In this document: one piece after another, positions 1-5,947 of the stretch
How the letters are laid out: the number at the start of each line of letters is the position of its first letter
Numbering within the stretch: position 1 is the stretch's first letter
IMG/VR virus record: IMGVR_UViG_2681813274_000010
Source of the DNA: a virus
Lineage: Duplodnaviria; Heunggongvirae; Uroviricota; Caudoviricetes
Reading direction: 5' to 3' (one strand)
DNA: 5,947 bases
Program-made: the position numbers and the translations under genes
The notes under the pieces: generated by a model
Seen by the model: the letters and a program-made list of their open reading frames with translations, nothing else
Told to the model about the DNA's origin: nothing
Database searches by the model: none

Positions 1-582
1 GCCGGGAGAAGTAATCCGGAAGAGGTTTGTTTGACCAGTTGTATATGTGCCATCGGCTTTCTCCGGTGGCACGGTGTTACACAGCAGGAGTTCAATCCTG
101 CTCAAGATTGTNNNNNNNNNNNNNNNNNNNNNNNNNNNNNNNNNNNNNNNNNNNNNNNNNNNNNNNNNNNNNNNNNNNNNNNNNNNNNNNNNNNNNNNNN
201 NNNNNNNNNNNNNNNNNNNNNNNNNNNNNNNNNNNNNNNNNNNNNNNNNNNNNNNNNNNNNNNNNNNNNNNNNNNNNNNNNNNNNNNNNNNNNNNNNNNN
301 NNNNNNNNNNNNNNNNNNNNNNNNNNNNNNNNNNNNNNNNNNNNNNNNNNNNNNNNNNNNNNNNNNNNNNNNNNNNNNNNNNNNNNNNNNNNNNNNNNNN
401 NNNNNNNNNNNNNNNNNNNNNNNNNNNNNNNNNNNNNNNNNNNNNNNNNNNNNNNNNNNNNNNNNNNNNNNNNNNNNNNNNNNNNNNNNNNNNNNNNNNN
501 NNNNNCCGCCGAAACGCTGAGAGATCACAGCGATGGGCGGGTTAAGTGCGGGTGCGTTGAGGATGCCTGACACATCAGAGGT

Positions 583-610
583 GGGCGGGGATGGGATCAG
601 CTCCCCGCCC
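583..610 (-). terminator. GC-rich stem-loop just 3' of hok; possible hok mRNA 3' structure or terminator
   Basis: Perfect 8-bp inverted repeat GGGCGGGG (583-590) / CCCCGCCC (603-610) with a 12-nt loop, 8 nt after the hok stop. No U-rich tail follows on the minus-strand transcript, so it may be a structural 3' element (fbi-like) rather than a classic intrinsic terminator. Confidence 0.35.
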
Positions 611-618
611 GGTCACTC

Positions 619-774
619 TTACTTCCTGGATTCGTAGTCTACGAAGACAGCGACCTCCGTCTGGCCGGTTCGGATTCGTACCTCACAGAGGTCTTTCCTC
701 GTTACCAGTGCCGTCACTATGACGGTTAAACAGATGACGATCAGGGCGATTAACATCGCCTTTTGCTGCTTCAT
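619..774 (-). CDS. hok: Hok/Gef-family type I toxin peptide (51 aa)
   Basis: Translation MKQQKAMLIALIVICLTVIVTALVTRKDLCEVRIRTGQTEVAVFVDYESRK has one N-terminal hydrophobic helix and the conserved C..C tail of Hok/Gef peptides. It is nearly identical to E. coli HokD/HokC as I recall them. AAGGAG Shine-Dalgarno lies 9 nt upstream of the ATG at 774; stop TAA at 619-621. Confidence 0.9.
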   Translation of the reverse strand: MKQQKAMLIALIVICLTVIVTALVTRKDLCEVRIRTGQTEVAVFVDYESRK

Positions 775-831
775 AGCCTGCTTCTCCTTGCCTTTCGGCA
801 TGTAAGAGGCTAACCTACATGTGCAAAGCAT
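619..831 (-). CDS. mok: Mok-like overlapping frame (70 aa, N-terminally extended and in-frame with hok)
   Basis: ATG at 831 opens the same frame as hok (MLCTCRLASYMPKGKEKQA + Hok), preceded by a GAGG Shine-Dalgarno about 8-9 nt upstream. The layout resembles chromosomal mokC/hokC as I recall it. Confidence 0.55.
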   Translation of the reverse strand: MLCTCRLASYMPKGKEKQAMKQQKAMLIALIVICLTVIVTALVTRKDLCEVRIRTGQTEVAVFVDYESRK

Positions 832-900
832 GAAATTGGCCTCAGATTAATGTTAAGCGTCTTGCCGGACGCGTAATGTTAACTGGGGCTTTTCTCTATC
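823..900 (+). ncRNA. sok: Putative Sok-like antisense RNA (boundaries approximate)
   Basis: By analogy with hok/sok loci the antitoxin RNA is encoded opposite the mok SD/start region. Candidate plus-strand promoter: TTGCCT (788-793), 17-nt spacer, TAACCT (811-816). Stem-loop GCGTC/GACGC at 856-871. Transcript ends cannot be fixed from sequence alone. Confidence 0.3.
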
Positions 901-1065
901 TGCCTTTTGGTGTTCATGCCTGAGACAGATAGCCTCAAGCACCCGCTGCAATTCTACTTAACTCTCCTTTTCCCGCAAACCGTTTTTATCCCCAGCGGCA
1001 AATCGAATACACCACCAGCGCCACCGCCATCGCAATTCCTACCGTTGTTAATGCTTCAGGCCAGG

Positions 1066-1410
1066 TCATCGTAAAATATCCTCCACGCTTATCAGTCCGT
1101 TCCGCTCCAGATAACTCATCGCCTTATCCGGTAATTTGCAGTCTGGCTTCGCTTTCCTCAGTTGCCAGGTTAACTGCTTTACCAGCATGGTTAACTCATC
1201 GACCAGACGCTGATATCCCACTGGTTTGTATTCATGCAATTTACCGGCTGGCTCTGCTGCCAGCGATACCAGTGCGATTTCCAGAACAGCAATATCCATC
1301 TTATATGTGCGGATGATGTCATGGTCGATTGTGCCCGGTATGCACAGTCTCTGTGCTTCAATAGTCTCCTCTGCGTGAGCTATTAACTGCTCTCTGGTAA
1401 AAGTCGTCAT
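1066..1410 (-). CDS. Hypothetical phage-type protein (114 aa), paralogous to the upstream 55-aa ORF
   Basis: Intact ORF. Its ATG overlaps the stop of the upstream ORF (ATGA), suggesting translational coupling. Shares the N-terminal MTT[IF]T[KR]E and an IAL-SL-AEP motif with the 55-aa ORF. No family recognised. Confidence 0.6.
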
Positions 1411-1574
1411 GCCGTAGCCCCTTCTTGATATTTTTCAAACCAGAACACAACCGGCTCTGCTTCCAGCGATGCCAGCGCAATCCGTGCCAGTTCCATTTGT
1501 TCACCACGGGTAAGCCCGTTTTCAAGCGGGTTTTTAATGAACAATTCAATACGTTCTTTGGTAATAGTGGTCAT
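1407..1574 (-). CDS. Small hypothetical protein (55 aa)
   Basis: Not in the supplied ORF track. ATG at 1574 is preceded by AAGGAG with a 6-nt spacer. Translation [55 protein letters not shown]; stop TGA at 1407-1409 overlaps the next start. Confidence 0.55.
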
Positions 1575-1640
1575 GTGTTACTCCTTAACCCGCAGTGCTT
1601 TCAACTGATGAGGGGAACAANNNNNNGGTGCCCCATAAAA

Positions 1641-2327
1641 TCACTCCTTCTCTTCTTTACCGTAGTGGAGTTGACCAATTTTGATAAGAGGGCGTCCCTG
1701 AGATTTGCGGTGTAGATTGGTATCGCGCAGAGAATACACACAGCCACAATATTCCTGCTGATAGAATTTTTCGCGCTTGCTGATTTCAATCATACGGGAC
1801 GAGCCGCCCTGCTTGCGCCAGTTATAATCCCAGTACACCATGCCCGGATAATGCGCGACGGCTCGCCGCCCACAGTCGTTAACCTGCTGCATATTTTTCC
1901 AGCGTGAAATGCCCAGTGAACTGCTGATCACACTGAAACCATTTTCAGCGGCGTACAGCGCTGTCCGCTCAAAACGCATGTCAAAACACATGGTGCAACG
2001 GATCCCTCGTTCGGGCTCCCATTCCATTCCTTTGGCTCGTTCAAACCAGTTGTCTGTGTCGTAATCAGCATCAATAAACGGCACGCCGTGTTGTTCAGCA
2101 AAGCGAATATTCTCATCCTTACGAATTAAATACTCTTTCTGAGGATGAATGTTCGGGTTGTAGAAAAAGATGGTGTAGTCGATTCCCGAGGCCTGAAGCG
2201 CCTCCATCACCTCACCGGAACATGGAGCACAGCAAGAGTGCAGTAGTAGTTTGTTTGCCCCGTTTGGGAGCTCCAATTTGGGCCGTTTGAAATCAGCAAC
2301 TGTCATAAATATGTTTATTGGGGTCAT
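1641..2327 (-). CDS. queH: QueH-family (DUF208) epoxyqueuosine reductase-like protein (228 aa)
   Basis: Hallmark motifs [33 protein letters not shown] and EYCGCVYS match the cysteine-rich signature of QueH/DUF208 as I know it. Full-length ORF. True start could be ATG 2327 or the in-frame ATG at 2306; neither has a strong Shine-Dalgarno. Confidence 0.85.
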
Positions 2328-2470
2328 AAAAATATCAAAGAGTGTAGCATTAGAACGGGGCTATCGGAAACAGATGTGTGACTGCTCCCCGCCCTTTCGG
2401 GTGGTCTCCTGATGATTTGAGGGTGCAGAAATCCCTCCGGTTAAGGATTAAATTTTTAACAGTGCTAAAT

Positions 2471-2637
2471 TTAATTATTCAGTTCTGGATTTTGTCGCCC
2501 TGCGTATCCGCGCTTTCGCGTTACGCTCAATCTGTATCAGCTTTTCTATATTTCTCCGCCTTTCCTGTTCCTCCTGGCGCAATAGCCTTACATCATCTGC
2601 CAGTCTGGTTTCTCTTTTTGCCACAGAGAGCATCCAG
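2471..2637. repeat. Direct repeat copy A (pairs with 3418-3584)
   Basis: Ungapped alignment of 2489-2637 against 3436-3584 gives 139/149 identical nt (about 93%). Similarity continues more weakly through both stop codons. Copy A extends further to 2702, where copy B is masked. Confidence 0.85.
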
Positions 2638-2702
2638 TCAAACGGCTCCACAACCGCACCGCAGATTTTACAGCGGACCTGACGCTCTTTTTCGTCAACC
2701 CG
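2475..2702 (-). CDS. Copy A of a conserved CxxC plus basic coiled-coil module; 5' end runs into an N-mask
   Basis: Frame reads RVDEKERQVRCKICGAVVEPFDWMLSVAKRETRLADDVRLLRQEEQERRRNIEKLIQIERNAKARIRRATKSRTE, then stop. The apparent start MLIFLMHR in the ORF track is a GTG in an alternative frame of the upstream gene and is probably not real. Either a small gene starting inside the mask or the C-terminus of a fusion. Confidence 0.5.
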   Translation of the reverse strand, partial: RVDEKERQVRCKICGAVVEPFDWMLSVAKRETRLADDVRLLRQEEQERRRNIEKLIQIERNAKARIRRATKSRTE

Positions 2703-2713
2703 NNNNNNNNNNN

Positions 2714-3207
2714 ACCGATGCATGAGAAAAATCAACACCAGACTTTTCAGCCAGGTCCAAGAGACGCGCTACCAAAGGTGGGGGGGTATAGTAAGCCCCC
2801 AATTCCGAACGGTAAGCGGATGGCAGCATTACCGTATAAATTGACCCAATCAGATATCCAGCGTCCTCCGCCGGAAATTGAGCAATAAGCTCACCTGTTC
2901 GTTCAGCGAGCTCGCGTGCATCACATGGAATGTCTTCTATGTAAACAGTGTGCGGTACTGCCCTCATTTTAATGCTGCTTTTTTGCTTTTTTGCAAGGGT
3001 ATCCCAATATGCAGCTACGATGCTGAAGCAGTATGAGCGGGCATGCATCAACCTTGACTGCCCGGTTTTGTAATTGCCCGCATAACCTTTGGCCATGGCT
3101 TTACAAGTTTGATATCTTTCCAGATTAGAAAACTCATTATCTGTAAAAAAATCAAAATGTTGCACATTCATAATGTAAAATCCTAATGTATCAAACATGC
3201 GGGCCAT
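2714..3207 (-). CDS. Truncated gamma-class N6-adenine DNA methyltransferase, N-terminal fragment only
   Basis: C-terminal part of the ORF reads EDAGYLIGSIYTVMLPSAYRSELGAYYTPPPLVARLLDLAEKSG. This matches the D.LG..YE.LL ... G.[FY]YTP..[VI]..L[LM] region that precedes the SAM-binding motif in HsdM-like/type IIG methylases. The expected D-P-x-C-G-x-G motif I and the NPPY/DPPY motif IV are absent: the frame meets the 11-nt mask and then the unrelated module sequence. Confidence 0.45.
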
Positions 3208-3417
3208 AACATCTCATGGTGGCGCATAGCAAACTGGCCCGAAGAATATCACGCACCAAGTCGATCTCATAACCCGTTATGACAATAAATCTTTGTAGCT
3301 GAACTCACTTGGTGATTTGTCAATCATTCCTGGCCTCCAGTTCGTCCTGAATCTCTTTATCGAGTTCACCGTATTTGTTAGTCCTCATCACTCACGACTT
3401 GACTTCCAGAAATAACC

Positions 3418-3584
3418 TTGATTATTCGGGGCTATATTTTGTCACCCTGCGTATCCGCGCTTTCGCATTACGCTCAATCTGGATTAGCTTTTCTATATTT
3501 TTTCGCCTTTCCCGCTCCTCCTGGCGCAAGAGCCTTACATCATCTGCCAGTCTGGTTTCTCTTTTCGCCACAGAGAGCATCCAG
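3418..3584. repeat. Direct repeat copy B (pairs with 2471-2637)
   Basis: Same alignment as copy A. The repeat runs into the 527-nt N-mask, so its true length is unknown. Confidence 0.85.
3422..3584 (-). CDS. Copy B of the conserved module (3' end of a gene whose 5' part is masked)
   Basis: Frame reads WMLSVAKRETRLADDVRLLRQEERERRKNIEKLIQIERNAKARIRRVTKYSPE, then stop TAA at 3422-3424. It has 139/149 identical nt with 2489-2637. Confidence 0.5.
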
Positions 3585-4111
3585 NNNNNNNNNNNNNNNN
3601 NNNNNNNNNNNNNNNNNNNNNNNNNNNNNNNNNNNNNNNNNNNNNNNNNNNNNNNNNNNNNNNNNNNNNNNNNNNNNNNNNNNNNNNNNNNNNNNNNNNN
3701 NNNNNNNNNNNNNNNNNNNNNNNNNNNNNNNNNNNNNNNNNNNNNNNNNNNNNNNNNNNNNNNNNNNNNNNNNNNNNNNNNNNNNNNNNNNNNNNNNNNN
3801 NNNNNNNNNNNNNNNNNNNNNNNNNNNNNNNNNNNNNNNNNNNNNNNNNNNNNNNNNNNNNNNNNNNNNNNNNNNNNNNNNNNNNNNNNNNNNNNNNNNN
3901 NNNNNNNNNNNNNNNNNNNNNNNNNNNNNNNNNNNNNNNNNNNNNNNNNNNNNNNNNNNNNNNNNNNNNNNNNNNNNNNNNNNNNNNNNNNNNNNNNNNN
4001 NNNNNNNNNNNNNNNNNNNNNNNNNNNNNNNNNNNNNNNNNNNNNNNNNNNNNNNNNNNNNNNNNNNNNNNNNNNNNNNNNNNNNNNNNNNNNNNNNNNN
4101 NNNNNNNNNNN

Positions 4112-4471
4112 CTTCCGGCACTCGCGACAGATTATATTCAGGCGCCTGTCGTAGCGGCGTATTTCTCCGTCAGGTAATGACCAGATAAGGTCCGGATCAA
4201 CAACAACCGGTTTCCTCACCTTTACTCTCGAGAGTTTTTTGCGGGCGCTTTGCCAGTCCTTGCGAGCCTGTTCAGACGGGAATAAGCCGTAGCCAGAATT
4301 ATATACATCACCACTTGCGACCAGTTCTATGCATAAGCGACCGACAGACGCACGACTGATACCTGTTTCATCTGACAACTGCCGAATCGTGACCCGACCG
4401 TCCTGATGCACGAGTTCCACAATTCGCGTCTTCAGTTCTTCCCGCTGTTCGGGAGTAAAAGGTTTCGCCAT
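4112..4471 (-). CDS. Winged-HTH (DeoR-like) DNA-binding protein, 3' end masked; possibly Ren-like by position
   Basis: ATG at 4471 with AGGAGG 4 nt upstream, 14 nt after the DnaC-like stop. N-terminus REELKTRIVELVHQDGRVTIRQLSDETGISRASVGRLCIELVASGDV looks like a DeoR-type HTH. Visible part ends NIICRECRKS at the mask edge. Position directly after the helicase loader matches ren in lambda; sequence similarity to Ren is weak and recalled from memory. Confidence 0.55.
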
Positions 4472-4485
4472 AAATCCTCCTGAAA

Positions 4486-5232
4486 CTACTTAACAACCCT
4501 CGAATGGCTAACATTCGGACGCCAGCTCTCCCAGTTAAAATTCACCCAGCGCCCGCCGTTCATGACCATGCGATCCATCACCCGCTCGCCGAGCAATGTT
4601 TTCATCACCTCATAGTTCAGGTTTGTCAGCATCCCCACGCTGCGCATCGACGCTGTCCGGCGATCAACAATCTGGTGCAGCACCACCTGCTCGTTTTTCG
4701 TCTCGCGCTGAATGCCAATTTCATCAAGAACCAGCAGATCCACTTCGCACAGCTCCCGCAAAAATTTTTCGCCTGACTGCCCGTCGTCATAGCTGGCGTG
4801 CAGGGCGCTCATAACATCAGCCACGGTAACCACAATCACTGTCTGACCGTCTTTCAGCAGGCGATTCCCGATAGCTGCCGCTAAGTGATTCTTCCCGGTA
4901 CCAGGTTTTCCGCTGAACGCAAAATTTGTACACCCGGTCATCAGTTCATCGGCGATGGATTTCGCCTGGCTTAACGCGTATCGCTGGCCGTCGTTCTGCA
5001 CCTGGTAATTCGCAAACGAGCATTTACGGTGCAACGGCTGGATGCCTGAGCGATTCAGAATTTTTTCCACCCGCAACTGGCGATTCAGGCGGTTGATCTC
5101 CTCGCTACGTTTCTGGCCTTCAGCAAGTTGCCACTCGCGCCACTCCGCTACCGTTCTGAATGGGGCGGTTACATGTGGCGGGGTCAGTCGGCGGATGCGT
5201 TCCAGAACGCCGCCTGTCGCAATATTTTTCAT
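4486..5232 (-). CDS. DnaC-family AAA+ helicase loader (phage replication protein, 248 aa)
   Basis: Walker A FSGKPGTGKNHLAAAIGN and Walker B DLLVLDEIG, plus RSGIQPLHRKCSFANY and LLGERVMDRM. These align along the whole length with E. coli DnaC as I recall it, at roughly half identity. Intact ORF; its start lies 10 nt after the stop of the upstream initiator. Confidence 0.9.
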   Translation of the reverse strand: MKNIATGGVLERIRRLTPPHVTAPFRTVAEWREWQLAEGQKRSEEINRLNRQLRVEKILNRSGIQPLHRKCSFANYQVQNDGQRYALSQAKSIADELMTGCTNFAFSGKPGTGKNHLAAAIGNRLLKDGQTVIVVTVADVMSALHASYDDGQSGEKFLRELCEVDLLVLDEIGIQRETKNEQVVLHQIVDRRTASMRSVGMLTNLNYEVMKTLLGERVMDRMVMNGGRWVNFNWESWRPNVSHSRVVK

Positions 5233-5238
5233 GGTCCG

Positions 5239-5574
5239 TTACCCCCTGAAGCCTGGCGGGATCGCACTGTCCGGCAACGAGACGGTGTTAACCTGTCGGA
5301 GCAACGTCTCAGGCCGAACACCTTTCGGCGCGAACAGGCCCTGGTATTCATTGGCGATGCTGTGTCGAATCACCTGCTCAGGTGTAAAACCCTGCTGACG
5401 GAATTTTTCCAGTTCCCGTATCGCCCCGTTAGCGCCCTGCTCCGTTCGAATCGGTTTTCGCAATGCCTGTCTGAACCGGACCCACTCATGCCAGAGTGTT
5501 TCCGGCAACCAATCGGGCAGCTCAATAGCCTCCGGCTCGAATTTTTTAGACGCTCGTTTTTGGCGAGGGGGAGA
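5239..5574 (-). CDS. Replication initiator, C-terminal DnaT-like domain (frame segment)
   Basis: Frame reads SPPRQKRASKKFEPEAIELPDWLPETLWHEWVRF...RQVNTVSLPDSAIPPGFRG. The C-terminal motif VNTVS.PDS.IPPGFRG matches the C-terminus of primosomal protein DnaT as I recall it. The segment is bounded upstream by an in-frame TGA at 5575-5577, so it is not a full gene by itself. Confidence 0.7.
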   Translation of the reverse strand, partial: SPPRQKRASKKFEPEAIELPDWLPETLWHEWVRFRQALRKPIRTEQGANGAIRELEKFRQQGFTPEQVIRHSIANEYQGLFAPKGVRPETLLRQVNTVSLPDSAIPPGFRG

Positions 5575-5604: not shown

Positions 5605-5865
5605 TCTGGTAACGCTTTTTGATCCGTTTGTGTAACGCTGGCAGCGTTACCTTTTCGTTTCAGTTCGCGTATTTTTGTTACTCGCTCGTTTGTAACCGCC
5701 CGTTTTTTTTAGAGCTTTTTCCGTTATGACGTTCAAAGTTAGGTAGAGAAAGCCCTCCGTCATTTTCGACCAGCCATCCAACCTGAATTAACGCATCAGC
5801 AAAACCAGACATAAAAGTGATGCGATCTATTGCACTTTTTGTAACGCCGCGAGCGTTACAATCTG
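5605..5865. promoter_or_regulatory. Putative replication origin: iteron-like GTAACGC repeats inside the initiator gene
   Basis: GTAACGC occurs at 5609-5615, 5632-5638 and 5841-5847. Its complement GCGTTAC occurs at 5644-5650 and 5853-5859. Two near-palindromes result: GTAACGCTG-g-CAGCGTTAC (5632-5650) and GTAACGC-cgcga-GCGTTAC (5841-5859). A variant GTAACCGC sits at 5692-5699, with T-rich tracts at 5616-5620 and 5703-5710. By analogy with ori-lambda lying inside gene O. Confidence 0.35.
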
Positions 5866-5947
5866 CATTACCGTCTATCATTTGTTGATCCGCCCATGCC
5901 CAGAAGCGAATAACCTGAGGTAGCCTGAGTTTAACGGACACTCCTTC
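5678..5947 (-). CDS. Replication initiator, N-terminal domain (frame segment; 5' end beyond the window)
   Basis: Frame is open to the right edge of the window; the GTG start shown in the ORF track is probably internal. Ends NGKSSKKNGRLQTSE at TAA 5678-5680 directly after an A8 run. An acidic/basic linker continues in a third frame (5550-5708). Confidence 0.55.
   Translation of the reverse strand, partial: EGVSVKLRLPQVIRFWAWADQQMIDGNADCNARGVTKSAIDRITFMSGFADALIQVGWLVENDGGLSLPNFERHNGKSSKKNGRLQTSE

Follow-up and report, generated by a model that had tools for sequence, protein, structure and literature searches.

Queuosine-pathway genes of phages have so far been tied to DNA modification, in which preQ0-derived bases are inserted by DpdA. 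The Dpd-like clusters combine a DpdA/Tgt-like protein with FolE, QueD, QueE and QueC, optionally together with QueF, ArcS or Gat-QueC; they make preQ0 derivatives and act on DNA. A 2019 viral survey reported QueA, QueG and QueH as absent from the viruses it analysed (PMC6884629), and in the searchable literature we found no description of QueH as phage or prophage cargo. Morons of the lambdoid nin region, such as hok/sok, restriction-modification and toxin-antitoxin units, form a second described class of accessory phage genes with which the present locus can be compared.

The substrate of QueH is epoxyqueuosine (oQ) at position 34 of tRNA-Asp, tRNA-Asn, tRNA-His and tRNA-Tyr, which the enzyme turns into queuosine (Q). 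The oQ34-tRNA is made by QueA, and the epoxide is then reduced to give Q34 either by QueG, with B12 and an Fe-S cluster, or by QueH, with an Fe-S cluster and iron (PMC9508795, PMC6461909). The two reductases belong to unrelated families, QueG using B12 and a [4Fe-4S] cluster and QueH iron only (PMC6461909, PMC13443448). QueG is among the cobamide-dependent enzymes of E. coli, where its deletion left growth unaffected in the assay used (PMC11841063); QueH is the cobamide-independent alternative to it (PMC6461909), and S. aureus has both enzymes, divergently expressed (PMC13443448).

Here we analyzed a 5,947-nt stretch of DNA from a member of the Caudoviricetes (IMG/VR record IMGVR_UViG_2681813274_000010; referred to as the window), which carries a queH gene. 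Like the Dpd-like clusters, it places a gene of the queuosine/archaeosine pathway on a phage, but unlike them the prophage QueH is a lone, late, tRNA-specific step and a transglycosylase is absent. It resembles the lambdoid nin-region morons in occupying the same variable slot as a small self-contained unit, in being mosaic across phage backgrounds and in being dispensable for phage propagation; it differs from them in bringing a tRNA-modification enzyme and not a toxin or a defence or virulence function, and it departs from the textbook promoter-gene-terminator moron in having no detected terminator. The family, the reaction, the structure and the RefSeq QueH label are known already, and the gene is an accessory backup gene rather than a new kind of system; what is new is a late tRNA-modification step, QueH, as a phage-borne accessory gene.

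The gene lies in an uninterrupted ORF on the minus strand (1641-2327), which encodes 228 amino acids when counted from its first ATG. Translation most likely begins at the second ATG (2306), which gives a protein of 221 amino acids, because the RefSeq protein starts there, because the N-termini of homologues fall at or just past that column and because divergence is far faster in the 21 nt that separate the two ATGs than in the core. This corrects the call of the first ATG in the original prediction, which had been made from the sequence alone; since the true start would be the second ATG, the interval given there for queH was correct to within 21 nt. Between the window and Escherichia phage HannyBb, 4 of the 21 nt between the ATGs differ, compared with 27 of 663 nt in the core, and among queH alleles the 7 codons between the ATGs hold most of the amino-acid variation. 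The segment is probably 5' UTR and not coding sequence. No Shine-Dalgarno sequence is evident before either the first or the second ATG. The features of the gene are as follows.

1641-2306, minus strand: queH coding sequence, 221 amino acids, running from the most likely start at the second ATG to a stop codon at 1641-1643; the protein has exactly the sequence of RefSeq WP_012421537.1
2307-2327, minus strand: in-frame extension of 7 codons from the upstream ATG, diverging about 5 times faster than the core, with nearly all changes non-synonymous, and missing from chromosomal homologues
2217-2240, minus strand: HSCCAPCS motif, residues 30-37, with Cys32, Cys33 and Cys36 (228-residue numbering), aligned with C9, C10 and D13 of T. 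maritima QueH
1986-2000, minus strand: RCTMC motif, residues 110-114, with Cys111 and Cys114, aligned with T. maritima C87 and C90
1740-1751, minus strand: YCGC motif, residues 193-196, with Cys194 and Cys196, aligned with T. maritima C169 and C171

The PF02677 (QueH/DUF208) profile matched the ORF with an E-value of 1.9e-65 (220.6 bits, gathering cut-off 23.5), residues 27-201 covering positions 1-174 of the 175 in the profile. The original assignment to QueH, which had been made to depend on a significant DUF208 profile hit, is thereby borne out over essentially the whole domain, and all three motifs of the cysteine signature that had been read from the letters are present in the translation. 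An NCBIfam search returned no QueH match at E ≤ 0.01, a result that is uninformative, as RefSeq names the protein regardless. Searching with phmmer against the sequence of T. maritima QueH (7LC5) gave an E-value of 5e-22 with six cysteines aligned. In the T. maritima enzyme, C9, C10, C87, C90, C169 and C171 together with D13 are residues that we take to bind the [4Fe-4S] cluster and an adjacent iron, roles reportedly described by Li and colleagues in 2021. C9 and D13 have been singled out by structural biologists, because C9S and D13N mutants are deposited in the PDB. Unlike T. maritima QueH, the prophage protein has a cysteine, Cys36, where the former has Asp13, and a cysteine stands there in all 10 proteobacterial QueH sequences aligned; across the same 10 proteins all seven positions (Cys32, 33, 36, 111, 114, 194 and 196) are invariant.

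An AF2 model of the prophage protein, of moderate confidence (pTM 0.72, mean pLDDT 69), is predicted to contain the QueH fold with its adenine-nucleotide alpha-hydrolase-like Rossmann core. In a fold search with this model, the best five PDB matches were all T. maritima QueH, 7LC5 and 7LC7 included, with target-normalised TM-scores (TMt) of 0.81-0.85 (0.83 for 7LC5 and 7LC7) and E-values down to 3.8e-12, and the next matches, PP-loop enzymes of the TtuA type, were about six orders of magnitude weaker (E ~1e-5). The protein thus resembles chromosomal and T. maritima QueH (7LC5/7LC7/9DEU) in its full domain, fold, length, six aligned cysteines and the HxCCAP, RCxxC and YCGC motifs. The prophage gene very probably encodes an active QueH, and its 89-92% amino-acid identity to the nearest chromosomal QueH proteins suggests that it would convert oQ-tRNA to Q-tRNA without cobalamin.

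Profile matches confirmed the predicted setting of the gene, with phage replication genes on one side and hok on the other, all on the strand of queH. The neighbouring features in the window are listed below.

5239-5508 and 5678-5941, minus strand: replication-initiator fragments, upstream of queH
4486-5232, minus strand: DnaC-like helicase loader, upstream of queH
3422-4471: a 349-amino-acid "ORF", an artefact produced by a 527-nt N-mask translated as X
1407-1574, minus strand: 55-amino-acid ORF between queH and hok
1066-1410, minus strand: 114-amino-acid ORF between queH and hok
619-831, minus strand: mok ORF with Hok inside (Pfam E 9.8e-23)
769-944: sok RNA (Rfam RF01794, 117.5 bits)

Between the DnaC-like loader and queH lies a partly masked Ren-like/DUF977 gene. 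We rejected 3422-4471 as a single gene; related prophages hold two there, a DUF977/Ren-like gene and a 118-amino-acid hypothetical (phrog_1621). Downstream of queH, a complete hok/mok/sok type I toxin-antitoxin module occupies 619-944.

The two small ORFs downstream of queH had been thought to be co-transcribed with it. Within the window this is possible, as no terminator is predicted, but the ORFs form a separate mosaic insert of 659 nt (968-1626) that occurs in this window only among 90 downstream flanks and is missing in the common prophage. None of the other 89 loci with a comparable downstream flank has the 55- and 114-amino-acid ORFs, which are therefore not functional partners of queH. 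The two encoded proteins have alike N-termini, MTT(I/F)T(K/R)E; the 55-amino-acid ORF is preceded by a strong AAGGAG Shine-Dalgarno sequence, and its stop overlaps the start of the 114-amino-acid ORF in ATGA. They fall in PHROG families 3323, 660 and 60, to which no function is assigned in PHROGs.

Partner genes had likewise been reported as not visible, and this holds more widely: the Pfam families of TGT, QueA, QueC, QueD, QueE and QueF, as well as dpdA, gave no match within 10 kb on either side of queH in eight prophages, in a 40.7-kb annotated stretch comprising a prophage and flanking chromosome, or in the 16.7 kb of HannyBb inspected. A 170-amino-acid "methylase-like" ORF with an AYYTPPP motif was considered as a QueH partner and rejected, since it is no more than the truncated 5' part of an HsdM-family gene that belongs to a different type of prophage.

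The same gene was found widely in related prophages. Of 5426 complete E. coli genomes, 995 (~18%) gave a megablast match to queH, near-full-length in 985, and nearly all of these copies are chromosomal and labelled 'epoxyqueuosine reductase QueH' in RefSeq. The gene is also present on ~190 IMG/VR viral contigs; a family-alignment scan of IMG/VR for distant viral QueH raised the number from 189 to 191 contigs, only 2 more. In the index of the assembly collection, 5483 blocks contain the exact 221-amino-acid protein. One isolated phage, HannyBb, carries queH at 95.6% nucleotide identity, annotated as 'hypothetical protein' at 8001-8687 of the inspected locus, where a short overlapping CDS is also annotated. 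The remaining QueH matches in INPHARED (31-78% identity) were not counted; they come from records of 280-380 kb or from short unannotated faecal contigs and are bacterial-looking or unverifiable. Among such records are Acinetobacter phage MD-2021a (330-380 kb) and Staphylococcus phage SA 1306 Kay (283 kb), as well as Listeria and Staphylococcus 'phage' fragments of 2.5-12 kb.

Complete genomes and IMG/VR contigs together gave the usual gene order: repressor, cro, cII-like, primosomal/O-like, DnaC-like, (DUF1627), DUF977, the 118-amino-acid hypothetical and queH, followed by hok, Rem/NinB-like, YbcO, a Q-like antiterminator, lysis and terminase genes. In the inspected loci the succession from replication genes to queH, hok and NinB/Q-like genes is constant, and the slot of queH is the nin-equivalent region of Rac/lambda-like prophages. 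Phage genes flank every inspected copy of the E. coli type. The host, for its part, already has an enzyme for this step: chromosomal queG (K-12 b4166), scored at ≥95% identity and ≥80% coverage, was detected in every one of the 5426 complete E. coli genomes and so in all 995 queH carriers. QueG and the prophage QueH have the same predicted reaction, oQ34 to Q34 in tRNA, in the same cell, QueG being core whereas QueH is accessory. Because queG is universal, queH is redundant accessory cargo, and the possibility that the host lacks QueG and this is simply its own queH in a non-phage context does not hold.

The nearest relatives of the gene outside Escherichia are chromosomal and stand in non-phage contexts. 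By amino-acid identity they are from Scandinavium (92%), Kluyvera (91%) and Enterobacter (89-90%); chromosomal QueH proteins of Enterobacterales in general are 80-92% identical to the prophage protein, and conservation across Proteobacteria is such that identity is 75-80% even in Sphingomonas. The neighbours are ordinary chromosomal genes: a short-chain dehydrogenase, a metallo-beta-lactamase fold protein and DUF1543 in Scandinavium; a DeoR regulator, a glycosyl hydrolase and a LysR regulator in Enterobacter; purL-queH-glrK in Erwinia; and tmcA-DUF441-queH in Providencia. Unlike these genes, the prophage queH is found in temperate phages and prophages and not at a housekeeping locus. The best reading of the comparison is that a lambdoid (Rac-like) phage lineage captured queH from an Enterobacteriaceae chromosome.

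Upstream of the coding sequence, prophage and chromosomal queH genes share a short element, for which the window has the following coordinates.

2341-2349, minus strand: extended −10-like element TGCTACACT, 43 nt upstream of the ATG at 2306
2364-2369, minus strand: weak −35, TTCCGA, upstream of TGCTACACT

The motif TGCTACA[A/C]T stands 42-44 nt before the start codon in phage queH and in the chromosomal queH of Scandinavium, Kluyvera, Enterobacter and Symbiopectobacterium, and it reads as an extended −10 (TGn followed by TACAAT/TACACT); around it the upstream regions of phage and chromosomal genes are otherwise non-alignable. Comparative conservation therefore points to the motif at 2341-2349 as the putative queH promoter, and, because this is the sole alignable upstream element, the phage would have taken queH together with its native promoter. 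A strict two-hexamer sigma-70 scan gave nothing relevant on the minus strand and missed the element because its −35 is weak. No intrinsic terminator was predicted in the gap that separates the queH stop (1641) from the gene after it, and with three terminator-like sites the stretch 500-3450 has no more of them than shuffled sequence would lead one to expect. An Rfam scan of the whole window by E-value, covering riboswitches and other RNA elements upstream of queH, gave only sok.

The gene behaves as a compact mobile cassette, whose extent in the window is as follows.

1627-2377, minus strand: mobile queH cassette, a block sharing at least ~95% with an E. albertii prophage (1627-2377) and with HannyBb (1635-2377)

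The shared block consists of the queH ORF with ~50 nt upstream and a few nt downstream, and the blastn block boundaries show that outside it the E. albertii and HannyBb flanks differ from those of the window. Among 92 loci compared on the upstream side the cassette adjoins at least 6 different contexts, and among 90 compared on the downstream side at least 5, the hok module lying directly downstream of queH in 74 of these 90. At two Rac-type loci, IS-riddled prophage remnants adjoining ttcA keep queH-hok intact and have lost neighbouring phage genes. That queH and hok survive together in such remnants may be due to domestication or to a stabilising effect of hok/sok, and the persistence of queH there could stem from its linkage to hok/sok rather than from a benefit of its own.

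Prophage queH is under strong purifying selection. Sampling of prophages gave 17 further nucleotide alleles, of which 16 have coding-region differences from the window allele, and comparing these 16 with it gave pN/pS values of 0.014-0.06, with pS up to 0.16 and pN at most 0.0095. A frameshift was present in 1 of 89 sampled full-length copies.

The surroundings of the cassette carry traces of exchange between prophages. In a different lambdoid prophage, of E. coli FDAARGOS_943 (NZ_CP065615.1, 1586694-1597397), the slot past DUF977 and the 118-amino-acid gene is taken by a restriction-modification system of the PstI/BsuBI type, with an HsdM-family methyltransferase and a BsuBI/PstI-type endonuclease, and by a ParDE toxin-antitoxin pair, so that the position behaves as a cargo hotspot. 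Positions 2714-3584 of the window are 100% identical to this prophage, but the window keeps only the first 494 nt of the HsdM-family gene (2714-3207, minus strand). The 3' part of the 118-amino-acid gene is present a second time at 2475-2702, in a copy ~92% identical to that of the FDAARGOS_943 prophage, and is followed by queH. The HsdM remnant is flanked by two 3' ends of the 118-amino-acid gene (2475-2702 and 3418-3584). Together, the remnant and the duplicated gene ends point to a recombination scar between two prophage types, and the window itself appears to be a recombinant of prophage types; its exact gene arrangement was absent among complete E. coli genomes and phage records. Two N-masks fall exactly on mosaic junctions, so that the junction letters are masked: 1621-1626 lies between the queH cassette and the small-ORF insert, and 2703-2713 between the HsdM remnant and the duplicated gene end.

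The reading that we favor, at a probability of about 0.62, is that a captured housekeeping QueH makes the conversion of oQ to Q independent of B12 in lysogens. According to this proposal, QueH, a cobalamin-independent iron-sulfur epoxyqueuosine reductase encoded on a lambdoid (Rac-like) phage lineage, would have been captured as a small cassette of native extended −10 promoter and ORF, without a terminator; it now occupies, as accessory cargo, the variable slot that separates the replication genes from hok/sok and the Q antiterminator. In the lysogen the gene would be driven by its own promoter, and prophage QueH would complete Q-tRNA when B12 is scarce by replacing the cobalamin-needing QueG step; during lytic growth or induction the early-right operon would transcribe queH as well. 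A role under B12 scarcity is suggested because E. coli QueG needs cobalamin and because, to our knowledge, de novo cobalamin synthesis is absent in E. coli; oQ reportedly accumulates in E. coli without cobalamin, an observation credited to Frey and colleagues in 1988. That B12-independence in the lysogen is what selection has acted on has roughly even odds, and the benefit of a backup reductase is unproven because we know of no recorded phenotype of oQ versus Q in E. coli. Of the three options originally offered for the gene, that of a moron, or of a gene that retunes host tRNA modification, is the best supported.

Three other accounts compete with that of a B12-independent step in lysogens. 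It seems unlikely that queH is an auxiliary gene of the lytic cycle, expressed only from the early-right transcript after induction or infection and of no benefit to the lysogen, with Q34 on host tRNAs completed so that the NAU/NAC codons of the phage are decoded optimally. Such a gene would be expected where queH is found, co-oriented with the replication genes and the Q antiterminator with no terminator predicted on either side, at a constant location in the nin-equivalent early region, and also in a free-living isolated phage, HannyBb; however, the retained upstream motif shared with chromosomal queH suggests autonomous transcription, queH is intact in IS-riddled and clearly non-inducible prophage remnants adjoining ttcA, and no difference in decoding between oQ and Q is known. 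We regard it as improbable that the gene is a neutral passenger without a role, captured by illegitimate recombination and persisting by hitch-hiking with hok/sok and the success of the phage lineage. Redundancy with the universal queG, the same downstream hok context in 74 of 90 loci and the survival of queH alongside hok in decayed prophages would all fit a passenger, but pN/pS values of 0.014-0.06 at a synonymous divergence of up to 16% amount to sustained protein-level constraint, a near-full-length copy is kept in 985 of the 995 genomes, and the cassette has stayed intact through moves into at least 6 different contexts on its upstream side.

The idea that QueH acts outside tRNA, reducing an epoxy-7-deazaguanine derivative in phage DNA or in a small molecule for anti-restriction or anti-defence, was another of the original options and is very unlikely to be right. 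Phages are known to put 7-deazaguanine derivatives in their DNA (PMC6884629, PMC10516641), and defence-type cargo (restriction-modification, ParDE) sits in the same slot of other prophages. Against this stand the lack of DpdA/TGT, QueA and preQ0-synthesis families within 10 kb on either side in eight prophages and in the 40.7-kb stretch, the 89-92% identity to housekeeping QueH with no extra domain, and surveys of 7-deazaguanine DNA modification that report no oQ or Q derivative in DNA.

The case is common and its function predictable, and it exposes an annotation gap: RefSeq names the protein QueH, whereas PHROGs and deposited phage genomes call the gene unknown or hypothetical. In PHROGs the prophage QueH is contained in phrog_3217 as 'unknown function', and the profile of that family starts at residue 34, without the N-terminal CCAPC motif. 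Widespread temperate E. coli phages thus carry the late, tRNA-specific step beside a host enzyme that needs B12, which offers a testable handle on whether, and when, finishing the conversion of oQ to Q matters. We suggest only tentatively that prophage queH is a true lysogenic-conversion gene, providing Q instead of oQ, where B12 is poor in the niche, to about one E. coli strain in five; if so, the strong purifying selection would provide the first evidence from nature that the step from oQ to Q in itself affects fitness.
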